A stretch of DNA of 24,009 nt from a virus (Duplodnaviria > Heunggongvirae > Uroviricota > Caudoviricetes): IMG/VR virus record IMGVR_UViG_2880406838_000007. One strand, written 5' to 3'. Made by a program: the position numbers. Positions within the stretch are counted from its first letter, which is position 1. Each line of letters starts with the position of its first letter. Below, in pieces: positions 18,001-21,000 of this stretch.

Positions 18001-21000
18001 TAATCCGTTCCTGATGTCGTACTTCACTCAGACCACTGACGGCAGAGTGAATCTGATGCATCACAGGAAAGCCGGAAACACGAAGCTGGGGGAGTTCGGC
18101 GATTACGGTAACGACTGGCAGACGCTGGAGCTGGTGTTCACCGCCGGCAGTGCCACGGTTACTCCGAAACTGAATGGAGTGGCTGGCCCGGCATTCCAGG
18201 TTATAAAAGACAGTCTGACACTGGGACTGAATGCGCTGTGAACCGCCCCGGAAATCCTGGAGACTAAACTCCCTGAGAAAGAGGTAAACAGGATGACTAA
18301 AAATACTCGTTTTTCCCCCGAAGTCCGTCAGCGGGCGATTCGTATGGTTCTGGAAAGTCAGGATGAATATGACTCACAGTGGGCGGCAATTTGTTCCATT
18401 GCCCCAAAGATTGGCTGTACGCCGGAGACTCTGCGTGTCTGGGTTCGCCAGCATGAGCGGGATACCGGGGGCGGTGATGGTGGGCTCACCAGCGCTGAAC
18501 GTCAGCGTCTGAAAGAGCTGGAACGTGAAAATCGTGAACTGCGCCGCAGTAACGATATCCTTCGCCAGGCTTCCGCTTATTTTGCGAAGGCGGAGTTCGA
18601 CCGCCTCTGGAAAAAATGATGCCACTGCTGGATAAGCTGCGTGAGCAGTACGGGGTCGGACCGGTATGCAGCGAACTGCATATTGCCCCGTCAACGTATT
18701 ACCATTGTCAGCAACAGCGACATCATCCGGATAAACGCAGTGCCCGTGCGCAGCACGACGACTGGCTGAAGAGAGAGATACAGCGCGTATACGATGAAAA
18801 TCATCAGGTGTACGGTGTGCGTAAAGTCTGGCGTCAGTTGTTACGGGAAGGAATCAGGGTGGCCAGATGTACAGTGGCACGTCTCATGGCGGTTATGGGA
18901 CTTGCCGGTGTTCTCCGGGGTAAAAAGGTCCGTACGACCATCAGCCGGAAAGCCGTTGCCGCAGGCGACCGCGTAAACCGTCAGTTCGTGGCAGAACGAC
19001 CTGACCAGCTGTGGGTGGCTGATTTTACTTACGTCAGCACATGGCAGGGCTTCGTCTATGTGGCGTTTATCATTGATGTGTTTGCCGGATACATCGTGGG
19101 GTGGCGGGTCTCATCGTCTATGGAAACGACATTCGTGCTGGATGCGCTGGAGCAGGCGTTGTGGGCCCGTCGTCCGTCTGGCACCATCCATCACAGCGAT
19201 AAAGGCTCTCAGTATGTGTCACTGGCCTATACGGAGCGACTAAAAGAAGCCGGATTACTGGCATCAACAGGGAGTACAGGCGACTCGTATGACAACGCGA
19301 TGGCTGAGAGCATCAATGGTCTTTACAAAGCGGAGGTAATACACCGTAAGAGCTGGAAAAACCGTGCAGAAGTGGAACTGGCCACACTAACGTGGGTGGA
19401 CTGGTATAACAATCGACGATTGCTGGGAAGGCTGGGCCATACTCCTCCGGCAGAAGCAGAAAAAGCTTATTATGCTTCCATCGGAAACGATGATCTGGCA
19501 GCCTGAGTTCACAGATAAAACACTCTCCAGGAAACCCGGGGCGGTTCAGGGGCTGAATGAAGTGGGCAGTGATACAGGCAGAACAGGAGAATGACATGAA
19601 TATACTAAAAAAACTTATGCAGCGTCTGTGTGGTTGCGGAAAGCATGATGGCCGTGAACACGTGCAGTCGCTTACAGCACAACTGCGACTGGGGCCGGCA
19701 GACATCCTGGAGTCCGATGAGAATGGTATTATTCCGGAGCAGGACAGGGTAATCACGCAGGTGGTGATACTGGATGCGGATAAAAAGCAGATACAGTGCG
19801 TGGTAAGACCGCTGCAAATTCTGCGTGCTGACGGGAGGTGGGAAAATATTGGCGGAATGAAATAGCCGACAGCTTCACAAAAACCGGAGTCCGGCTCCGG
19901 TTTTTGTTGTCATGTCCGGTGGATGTTTGTTAGGAATGTTCAGACAGGTTTATTTTGAATTTACACAGAATCCTAAACAGGTTCGAAAATTAAGAAAGAG
20001 GTTGTATGTTTAGCATAAGAACCCTACTACCTATTAGCGCCAGCGTATCAGTTCCGACAAAACAATCTCAATCCATCCCAATAACTTTAGCAGGGAGAAC
20101 AATCGAAAAAGCGCAAGAGAAAGAAGGATTACTTGTTTTTTTAGGAATGAAATCCGTTAATGACTATACTCTTAATATTCTTGGCCAAAATGTTTCAAGA
20201 GTCACAACGGGGAAAAAACCGTATGATTTATTATTCCTGAATGATGCTACAAAACAAGATTTTGATAAAAGGAAAATGGAGTTTACATATCCTGGAGCAA
20301 ATAAAAGCCATCTACAATCAAGTAATAGCGATGTTGTTGCTGCTGCAGCTATAAGTATTACAGCGACAGAGATGAAAACCATCCTGCCAGATGATTTAAC
20401 ACTAGGAAAATACAACAAAATTTATCTGTCTGGGCATGGTTCTGCTGGTCTACCTCTTCTTAAGTGCGGAGATGAATTTTTATCACCGTCAGATATTGTC
20501 GACCGCATTGTTCAGCATAATCTTCATGAAATAGATGATATCAGATTAACATCCTGTAACTCAGCCAACATAATAAAAAACAAAGACTTCTCTCCTGATG
20601 AAATAGAAAAATCCGCAAATATGAATAACGGCTGGTTGGCCAGGGCATTATTTGGTCAAAAGAGGTCTTTAGCAGAACACGTCTATGCCGAGTTTGAACG
20701 TCGCGGAATTAACGTTTCTATATCAGGTTACCATGGCACTGGCGTTTTTTATGTACCAGAGCATGGTAAACCAACAACGCATCTACGCTCCACAACTGTG
20801 CCTGCAACACCTGAACATACTGTAAGAAGAAGCGACTACAGAGCCACTTTGGGTAGAACTCAACCCATAGATATTGAGTAATTGAGCCAGCATATACACT
20901 TGATGGTTAGGAAACAGAATCATTGTTTTAAACATTTCCTGGCCATTAATATTGTCGGCGGGAGCATATCCAGGACTGGCCGGCAAACCGGGTACGCGAT

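Follow-up and report, generated by a model that had tools for sequence, protein, structure and literature searches.

A duplication-less IS629 in a cryptic prophage of E. coli O111 as the probable hybrid product of recombination between two IS629 copies

The DNA analysed here, a stretch of 24,009 nt referred to as the window, is a cryptic E. coli O111 prophage that carries an apparently intact 1310-bp IS629 (IS1203 isoform), flanked by CTG on its left and GGG on its right. Alignment with sister O111 genomes, in which both partner junctions were found at the same locus, suggests that this IS629 is most probably a hybrid left by recombination of two directly repeated IS629 copies within the prophage late region. 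The earlier note had attributed the missing duplication to an IS629 recombination or deletion and had proposed looking for the partner flanks by alignment; both points are borne out. The features on which the argument draws are as follows.

16472-18241 (+): truncated nanS-p-like esterase gene, 589 aa; its stop codon TGA (18239-18241) belongs to the IS
18236-18238: left flank CTG, the same junction as in TW05614
18239-19548 (+): IS629/IS1203 element, delimited by its inverted repeats, near-identity to reference copies and PGAP
18239-18263 and 19524-19548: left and right inverted repeats of IS629
18293-18619 (+): orfA of IS629, 108 aa, Pfam HTH_Tnp_1
18574-18690 (+): ALIL pseudoknot, Rfam RF01497, 121.5 bits against a gathering score of 50
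18616-19506 (+): orfB of IS629, 296 aa, Pfam HTH_21 and rve DDE domain
19549-19551: right flank GGG, probably the right-hand repeat still left from the GGG duplication of an IS629 insertion in the tail-fibre gene
19549-19594 (+): last 46 nt, including the stop, of a tail-fibre N-terminal-domain gene, aligned to the fibre genes of 8E, 8B and TW05614
19596-19865 (+): intact tail-fibre C-terminal ORF, Phage_fiber_C E = 1.5e-36, PGAP WP_001023452.1
19866-19932 (+): fragment of a tail-assembly-protein gene, a PGAP pseudogene in the identical E2863 sequence
20006-20881 (+): 291-aa ORF in the cargo region, no Pfam family
21106-21756 (-): nleG7 type III effector gene, Pfam T3SS_NleG E = 8.9e-48, PGAP nleG7
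22726-24009 (+): ydfJ', a chromosomal gene without its 5' end, at the right prophage boundary, by PGAP on the identical sequence

The span of 18230-19560 given in the earlier note does hold an IS629, with boundaries that we place at 18239 and 19548. Its terminal inverted repeats of 25 nt (TGAACCGCCCCGG.../...CCGGGGCGGTTCA) are imperfect, being 88% complementary, and start TG...CA. At the overlap of orfA and orfB, the ALIL pseudoknot, a stimulator of -1 frameshifting, accompanies an A6-type slippery run at ...GGAAAAAATGA, and in PGAP the identical IS sequence is an IS1203-family transposase for which a programmed frameshift is noted. Over the 1073 nt retained in Sakai Sp4, the element matches the IS629 annotated there with 100% identity; it is also 100% identical to the nanS copy of TW05614 and to one copy in 8B, and differs from five other O111 copies at 0-1 positions. 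Its length, inverted repeats, two overlapping ORFs with frameshift and near-identity to reference copies are thus those of IS629; the 1310-bp length, the terminal repeats, the orfA/orfB frameshift, ALIL and rve are all shared with IS629/IS1203 of EHEC O157:H7 and O111:H-. Like 62% of the IS629 copies catalogued in O157 (PMC3271280), it lies in a prophage, and an O111 genome carries IS629 at about 40 or more places.

With these boundaries the flanking triplets are still those read in the earlier note, CTG and GGG, and neither a 3-bp direct repeat nor any other duplication of 3-4 bp is present. The missing duplication indicates that the window copy is no simple insertion, and leaves its identity as IS629 unaffected. 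Among eight independent IS629 copies at the loci fetched, four have 3-bp duplications (GAC, GGG, AAC and CTG), and these show that such a duplication can be taken as the normal product of IS629, as had been claimed; it is nevertheless often absent, both in the other half of these copies and in O157, where matching duplications were reported at only 21 of 47 IS629 sites (PMC3271280), and its lack in the window copy is not exceptional.

To the left of the element, the first three bases of the IS, TGA, end the esterase ORF, confirming that the left inverted repeat supplies the stop codon of nanS-p. This ORF contains DUF1737, SASA and DUF6645 domains (Pfam), the last matched at profile positions 1-115 of 119, and lies downstream of Q and the tRNAs; in architecture and place it is a NanS-p-like prophage sialate O-acetylesterase gene of predicted activity, with its last 28 aa missing. 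The intact allele is 84 nt (28 codons) longer, encoding 617 aa, and in 8E and 7-32 9A it continues ACGCTGACGG... for these 84 nt.

To the right, no holin, endolysin, Rz, terminase, head or tail-shaft genes were found between IS629 and ydfJ' by ORFs, Pfam or PGAP, so the lysis and morphogenesis genes are indeed missing. Effector cargo does not follow the IS directly, as had been thought. The 46-nt 3' end of the fibre N gene and the Phage_fiber_C ORF (89 aa by PGAP, with a start extended to 19557 by the ORF finder) come first, and nleG7 lies 1.5 kb further along, on the minus strand. Two further readings of the earlier note have to be given up: stx is absent from the window, where hokD and a YdaT-family gene are the only 'toxins', and the prophage is not simply inserted in ydfJ, its integrase side adjoining ompW, so that the ompW and ydfJ flanks are mismatched. 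nleG7, paa and the tRNAs are kept in all alleles.

The junction pair of the window is intact in 25 independent complete genomes of O111 strains, which come from several countries and several hosts, and UTAK-22 is a 26th genome with this pair, carrying an internal IS deletion. Among the O111 genomes compared the flanks are at least 99.87% identical, indicating the same locus and lineage; with flanks so nearly invariant, the order of the alleles is one of parsimony and not of strain phylogeny. In 8E there is no IS at the locus, nanS-p, holin, ydfR and lysozyme are intact, and the antirepressor gene runs straight into the 3' third of J. TW05614 reads ...GAATGCGCTG-IS-ACGTGATAAGG..., with a left junction identical to that of the window and other DNA beyond the right end of the IS. 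FWSEC0005 and SF4-1 read ...TTAAGGG-IS-GGGGCTGAATG..., with a right junction identical to that of the window. Uninterrupted fibre genes read TTAAGGGGCTGAATG and the intact fibre site is TTAAGGGGCTG, and the GGG around the IS in FWSEC0005 and SF4-1 is therefore a true duplication. These two genomes also carry a nanS-lysozyme deletion with the same nanS breakpoint.

Junction-specific megablast of complete genomes detected the IS-lysozyme junction only in TW05614 and the fibre-IS junction only in FWSEC0005 and SF4-1, and found no complete genome with both IS copies. The TW05614 and fibre copies are both on the + strand of the locus, and a 4,241-bp interval present in TW05614, FWSEC0005 and SF4-1 is absent from the window. 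The window thus combines the left flank of one parent (TW05614) with the right flank of the other (FWSEC0005, SF4-1), the parents having the same orientation and the DNA between them missing from the product. Neither partner junction is kept in the window-type genomes, as expected for a deletion and not for an inversion.

Each one-IS allele has a scar exactly at the IS site of the other allele. In FWSEC0005 and SF4-1 the nanS site reads GCGCTG followed by TGATAAGG, with the IS and ACG both gone, while in TW05614 the fibre site reads TTAAGGGCTG, one G short (GGGG to GGG), which frameshifts fibre N. No other indels separate TW05614 and FWSEC0005 over more than 35 kb, so that these scars at reciprocal sites imply a two-IS ancestor, which we infer from the scars only. 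Sequencing noise was considered for the missing G, which lies in a homopolymer, and was judged unlikely given that no other indel occurs in more than 35 kb. A shared ACG was also considered as microhomology for the nanS-lysozyme deletion and rejected: the join would be GCGCTGACGTGATAAGG, and no IS insertion derives either observed allele from it.

Together, these alleles suggest the following course of events. In all O111 versions of this prophage arm, as sister genomes show, the region from Rz to about two thirds of J had been lost beforehand at the IS-free antirepressor-J' junction. By a mechanism that is putative, though its product is observed, an IS629 would then have come to lie between nanS-p codon 589 and lysozyme nt 243, with a loss of 1,093 bp comprising the 3' end of nanS-p, holin, ydfR and the 5' part of the lysozyme gene, and with flanks CTG and ACG, that is, no duplication. 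A second IS629, with the same orientation, is observed 46 nt before the end of fibre N, where it inserted with a normal GGG duplication. Homologous recombination of the two 1310-bp repeats would next have deleted one IS together with 4,241 bp (lysozyme remnant, antirepressor, J', lom and fibre N), leaving an element with CTG from copy 1 on its left and GGG from copy 2 on its right. As its flanks would come from two different copies, the surviving IS would have no duplication, and its TGA would end nanS-p. That IS is still subject to loss through near-IS-length excisions with 1-4 nt of microhomology, as sister genomes attest. A RecA-dependent 4,241-bp step would look the same, at the sequence level, as a transposase-mediated event.

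The right junction could also have been made by a single element, if a TW05614-type IS629 transposed intramolecularly, or underwent 'sloppy' strand transfer, into the fibre gene and 4.2 kb was lost at once. IS3-family and IEE-dependent events do delete from an IS end (PMC9943667; bioRxiv 10.1101/2023.06.07.543989), and the window IS equals the TW05614 copy over its full length. This includes nt 156, the sole informative SNP in the IS, which is T in the nanS and window copies and C in the fibre copy of FWSEC0005 and SF4-1; it fits a crossover downstream of this position and is equally compatible with an adjacent deletion by one IS. IS629 also seems drawn to the fibre 3' end, since in 8B a different prophage carries an independent insertion 33 nt downstream. 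We consider such a one-IS deletion unlikely, and with it its corollary that the fibre IS629 of FWSEC0005 and SF4-1 is an unrelated insertion at the same nucleotide: two independent events would be needed at exactly the same phosphodiester bond, and neither the -1 G scar of TW05614 nor the IS+ACG scar of FWSEC0005 and SF4-1 would be accounted for. The parent on the left might instead have been a simple nanS-p::IS629 insertion in an 8E-like prophage, with a CTG duplication of which the left CTG would be one half; recombination with the fibre IS629 would then have removed 5.3 kb in one deletion, and the TW05614-type allele would lie on a side branch. Taken alone, the window is compatible with either presence or absence of the lysozyme remnant before the deletion. 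This history is quite improbable, however, because the IS-CTGACGCTGACGG junction that it predicts was in no genome or viral contig searched, and because the fibre-IS genomes already have the nanS-lysozyme deletion; the nanS breakpoint they share places the 1,093-bp deletion before or together with the fibre insertion in the FWSEC0005/SF4-1 lineage. Exact-pattern scans of viral contigs likewise gave neither nanS-p::IS with a CTG duplication nor lysozyme::IS with an ACG duplication, and in the left-junction search for a nanS-p::IS parent the matches were swamped by the unrelated IS629 of O157 Sp4.

IS-free junctions of nanS-p and fibre C exist (the type of 7-32 9A and 11 further genomes), and IS629 could be imagined to have inserted into one of them without duplication. 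This is very improbable: the four forms each lack 7-18 nt that flank the window IS, and the native right flank GGGGCTG, lost in the commonest IS-free allele, could not be restored by insertion. The native fibre sequence flanking the IS in the window contradicts it. With so many IS629 sites per O111 genome, collapse of repeats over two copies during assembly is conceivable, but an artefact is scarcely credible when the same junction pair recurs in the 25 independently assembled complete genomes and when UTAK-22, 8234 and the 12 IS-free scars make sense only with a real junction. Recombination between two direct copies thus remains our preferred origin of the window IS629.

The earlier note had also taken the IS to mark where the lysis and morphogenesis modules were lost, and here the sister genomes speak against it, IS-free 8E being already without Rz to most of J. 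Since 8E has no IS and yet has its antirepressor gene joined to J', about 20 kb (Rz, terminase, head and tail) is, on this comparison, an earlier loss at an IS-free junction that was itself removed by the later IS deletion. Only 5,322 bp of remnants went with the IS-linked events, first 1,093 bp and then about 4.2 kb, so some four fifths of the absent late region is a loss that, by the same comparison, came before the IS deletion.

The IS has also been lost again at this locus. It is gone from 12 further O111 genomes, with four different small scars, and two more genomes carry partial IS deletions. The losses comprise the IS plus 3, 4, 7, 8, 11 or 18 nt, with junction microhomology of 1-4 nt, that is, about one IS length with short microhomology at the junction. 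Excision by IEE is characterized by near-IS-length deletions, 2-4 bp of microhomology and MMEJ activity (PMC9943667; bioRxiv 10.1101/2023.06.07.543989), O111:H8 is among the IEE-positive serotypes (PMC9943667), and a full-length iee of about 100% identity is present in two window-type O111 genomes, 2015C-3101 and 08-4347. The IS-free scars fit IEE-promoted IS629 excision in both near-IS-length loss and short microhomology; unlike the products of IEE experiments they are natural alleles, whose dependence on IEE is presumed. Having no duplication, the window IS has no built-in 3-bp microhomology, and hence no 'precise' excision and differing scars. Full excisions would number at least two, and probably four, with two more suggested by the one-IS scars and two partial deletions. 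We lean, somewhat cautiously, to the view that sequenced natural O111 isolates document almost the whole life history of an IS: empty site, normal insertion, duplication-less copy, recombination and repeated loss. It also seems fairly plausible that the differing scars would show the range of IEE-type end joining in vivo and serve as markers of O111 lineages.

The event in the window is of an ordinary and known kind, its allele series being unusually complete. Small structural polymorphisms and deletions mediated by IS in EHEC prophages are credited in PMC9943667 to Ooka et al. 2009 and Kusumoto et al. 2011, and repeat-mediated prophage deletions have been described in O157 (PMC7430833). With these EHEC/O157 cases the window shares a direct-repeat deletion in a lambdoid prophage, an IS with hybrid flanks and a decay that keeps the cargo; it differs in serotype, here O111, and in that the O111 locus retains the one-IS parents, the IS-free baseline and the post-deletion derivatives, all in sister strains, so that the order of events can be read directly. 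Sakai Sp4 has the order Q, tRNAs, nanS-p, IS629 like the window, an arrangement common to about 280 O157 genomes, the two IS sites lying at most about 205 nt apart; the Sp4 element, however, is an independent insertion, internally deleted and placed 121 nt beyond the end of an intact nanS-p. A limited literature search found no O111-specific paper on this prophage IS629 locus, and a prior description is possible.

Current understanding of IS629, NanS-p and O111 virulence is unchanged by these data. They provide a worked example of a duplication-less EHEC IS629 whose origin is traceable to one particular recombination between two copies, and they illustrate that such an IS need not mark the main site of prophage loss, a warning for annotation that prophage decay should not be read from one genome. 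The variety of scars at the window IS further offers natural data that fit the microhomology end-joining model for IEE.

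The IS629 element in the window is a complete copy of the IS1203 isoform, with orfA and orfB carrying HTH and rve domains, and is 100% identical to the copy annotated as IS629 in prophage Sp4 of strain Sakai over the 1073 nt retained there. The features at this site are:

16472-18241: nanS-p-like ORF with the NanS-p architecture DUF1737 + SASA + DUF6645
18239-19548: complete IS629, 1310 bp, with 25-nt imperfect terminal repeats
18574-18690: ALIL frameshift pseudoknot, within IS629

The stop codon of the nanS-p ORF is the TGA opening IS629, and intact alleles are 84 nt longer (617 aa vs 589 aa in the window). 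The flanking triplets are CTG on the left and GGG on the right, indicating that no target duplication is present. Thus, an IS629 without target duplication does end nanS-p early, as the earlier note had claimed. IS629 is the commonest IS in EHEC, occurs mainly in prophages and generates 3-4 bp duplications, which were found at only 21 of 47 O157 sites (PMC3271280). Among the independent IS629 copies in the compared loci, four have 3-bp duplications and four have none. An Rfam match to the sRNA STnc100 lies directly upstream of nanS-p (16162-16334).

Twenty-five complete E. coli O111 (H8/H-/NM) chromosomes share an identical 3.3-kb region around the IS, and a 26th O111 chromosome carries the same region with an internally deleted IS. 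In O111 genomes with the window-identical region, the prophage extends from an integrase adjoining ompW to a 5'-truncated ydfJ (ydfJ'). PGAP annotation of the identical sequence gives the early gene order int, xis, exo, dicB, repressor genes (cro frameshifted), replication genes, paa, hokD and Q, followed by two tRNAs, a TerB pseudogene, DUF3927, the truncated nanS-p and the IS; beyond the IS lie a tail-fibre C-terminal gene, a tail-assembly fragment, a 291-aa ORF, nleG7 and dinI. The IS had been described as followed directly by effector cargo, but the first ORF after it matches Phage_fiber_C (E = 1.5e-36); nor is retention of a notable toxin supported, stx being absent from the prophage in this annotation.

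The frameshifted cro-like gene and a fimbrial pseudogene upstream of paa (PGAP, E2863 identical sequence; window ~6903-7131 and 10066-10600) also point to decay of the early region. ARAGORN called a third tRNA ('Lys, ttt') at 15215-15290, between tRNA-Ile2 (CAT) and tRNA-Arg (TCT), which was called by neither Rfam at gathering score nor PGAP. Sakai Sp4 has ileZ-argN-argO, and the extra call could be a degenerate homologue of argN. Other Rfam matches are the sok antitoxin beside hokD (11705-11854) and DicF (4537-4588, minus strand).

Among other O111 genomes, the flanks of this prophage arm are at least 99.87% identical, and the IS state varies. Strain 8E is without the IS and has an intact nanS-p, holin, ydfR, lysozyme and antirepressor, joined to the 3' third only of J (J'), then lom, fibre N, fibre C, the 291-aa ORF, nleG7 and dinI. 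Strains 8B, 95NR1 and 95JB1 have the lysozyme-to-ydfJ' arm as in 8E, but joined to a different early region. TW05614 has the left junction of the window, ...GAATGCGCTG[IS629]ACGTGATAAGG..., and on the right its IS meets the lysozyme gene at nt 243, ahead of the antirepressor gene, J', lom and the fibre genes. At the nanS-p site, FWSEC0005 and SF4-1 are without an IS and read GCGCTG/TGATAAGG; they carry a same-orientation IS629 in fibre N at ...TTAAGGG[IS]GGGGCTGAATG..., exactly the right junction of the window. Since uninterrupted fibre genes read TTAAGGGGCTG, GGG at this fibre copy is a true duplication. The window type therefore combines the TW05614 left junction with the FWSEC0005/SF4-1 right junction.

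Compared with 8E, 5,322 bp is absent from the window. A 1,093-bp segment of this (the 3' end of nanS-p, holin, ydfR and lysozyme gene nt 1-242) went when the TW05614-type junction formed; the other ~4.2 kb comprises what was left of the lysozyme gene, the antirepressor gene, J', lom and almost the whole of fibre N. Both the IS-free 8E and strain 8B already lack Rz, terminase, portal, capsid, tail shaft, tape measure and two thirds of J. In 8E, J' starts 6 nt after the antirepressor gene, at a junction without an IS (~6226-6231 of its locus, L008), which is also found in TW05614, FWSEC0005 and comparison locus L009 and is absent from the window. In every O111 version examined, Rz, terminase, head and most of the tail genes had disappeared at this junction, a loss of ~20 kb when judged against a fuller neighbouring prophage in strain 7-32 9A. 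Because the junction is gone from the window, the IS is no marker for the site at which the morphogenesis module was lost, and the proposal that the IS event removed the lysis and morphogenesis modules is not supported, the large loss being older.

Recombination between two IS copies, which the earlier note had also suggested, is the simplest account of the window allele and is well supported by the partner junctions and their reciprocal scars in TW05614 and FWSEC0005/SF4-1. In an ancestor, the two copies would have stood as direct repeats separated by 4,241 bp; their homologous recombination would have removed one IS and the interval, and the surviving IS would keep CTG as its left flank and GGG as its right flank. 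No complete genome with both copies was found. In FWSEC0005 and SF4-1, the first IS and the adjoining ACG are both absent (L003 15763/15764 and L007 4000/4001, respectively), and TW05614 has GGG in place of GGGG exactly at the target of the second IS (L002 ~26548-26551), frameshifting fibre N. No other indels separate TW05614 from FWSEC0005 in the >35 kb compared, and both changes look like excision scars, suggesting that the one-IS strains probably each carried the second copy at an earlier time. Moreover, no window-type genome was found to keep either partner junction, which fits a deletion and argues against inversion or translocation. Nucleotide 156 of the IS is T in the nanS copy (TW05614) and the window copy and C in the fibre copy, fitting a crossover downstream of nt 156. 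The shared T is equally compatible with an adjacent deletion made by a single IS, but this would require the same bond to be used in two independent events and would leave the scars in TW05614 and FWSEC0005/SF4-1 unexplained, and we consider it improbable.

Under recombination between two copies, the first copy, itself without duplication (CTG/ACG), could come from another two-copy recombination or from a one-step adjacent deletion. ACG is both the three bases after the breakpoint in intact nanS-p and the three retained next to the TW05614 IS on its lysozyme side (window 18236-18241 vs L008 4001-4003 and 5094-5096); the chance of this is 1 in 64, and no mechanism using the shared ACG was found. 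Seven SNPs between TW05614 and FWSEC0005 cluster in ~350 nt of fibre N within 35 kb that is otherwise identical, and may reflect gene conversion by a paralogous fibre gene.

The IS was also lost later, in whole or in part (IS-loss loci L013 5950-5960, L014-L017, L011 and L006). Twelve further O111 genomes have an IS-free nanS-p/fibre-C junction in four forms, at least two of which are not derivable from one another:

GAATGCGCTGAATGAAG: 7 genomes, lost IS + 7 nt, microhomology GCTG
GAATGGCTGAATG: 1 genome, lost IS + 8 nt, microhomology about 1 nt (G)
GGGACTGGGCTGAATG: 3 genomes, lost IS + 11 nt, microhomology about 1 nt (G)
CACTGGCTGAATG: 1 genome, lost IS + 18 nt, microhomology GG

Each lacks native flanking bases kept in the window, so that any of them as ancestor of the window allele is ruled out. 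Partial deletions also occur: in strain 8234 the IS is reduced to its last 84 nt, and in UTAK-22 it lacks the first 296 nt. Excision assisted by the IS-excision enhancer (IEE) and IEE end-joining are reported to give near-IS-length losses with short microhomologies (PMC9943667; bioRxiv 10.1101/2023.06.07.543989), which the O111 scars resemble. O111:H8 is a reported IEE-positive serotype (PMC9943667), and two window-type O111 genomes contain the iee gene in full length. Judging from these sequences, the IS losses may depend on IEE. At least 80% of the iee gene is present in 683 of 5426 complete E. coli genomes; PGAP now names IEE 'TOTE conflict system archaeo-eukaryotic primase domain-containing protein' (Sakai iee, L018 3954-6314).

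Other IS629 copies lie in related positions. Sakai Sp4 (O157) has an internally deleted copy (L010 6356-7428) 121 nt after an intact nanS-p; it is ~205 nt from the O111 site and common to ~280 O157 genomes, and IS629 seems to insert readily in the DNA that follows nanS-p. The neighbouring 7-32 9A prophage has two more copies without duplications, flanked by CTC/GGC and AGG/GAG:

L004 9004-10313: IS629
L012 ~23466-24775, minus strand: IS629

The L004 copy links a DUF977 early gene directly to DUF3927/nanS-p, indicating that this prophage apparently lost its Q region. A different prophage of 8B, near yodB, has an independent IS629 with an AAC duplication (L005 9184-10493), 33 nt downstream of the equivalent fibre position, and encodes an identical fibre-C protein.

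The chromosomal flanks of the O111 prophage are mismatched, with ompW at the integrase side (int, window 1-1131) and ydfJ' at the cargo side (22726-24009). In 7-32 9A, a 4-kb tonB-yciABC-ompW island separates the O111 cryptic prophage from the fuller one, which lies on the rspB side and has genes for lysis and morphogenesis, and in 8B the same right arm is fused to a different early region beside yciI. These arrangements (window, L001, L009, L012 and L013) point to inter-prophage rearrangements, and the mismatched flanks and rearranged arms make Int/Xis excision of the prophage unlikely.

Repeat-mediated and IS-mediated prophage deletions are well documented in O157 (PMC7430833; for IS-mediated deletions, Ooka 2009 and Kusumoto 2011, as cited in PMC9943667). 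Among the papers available to our literature search, none describing this O111 locus was found. The O111 deletion is a new instance of a known process, notable only in that so many intermediates survive in sequenced strains.
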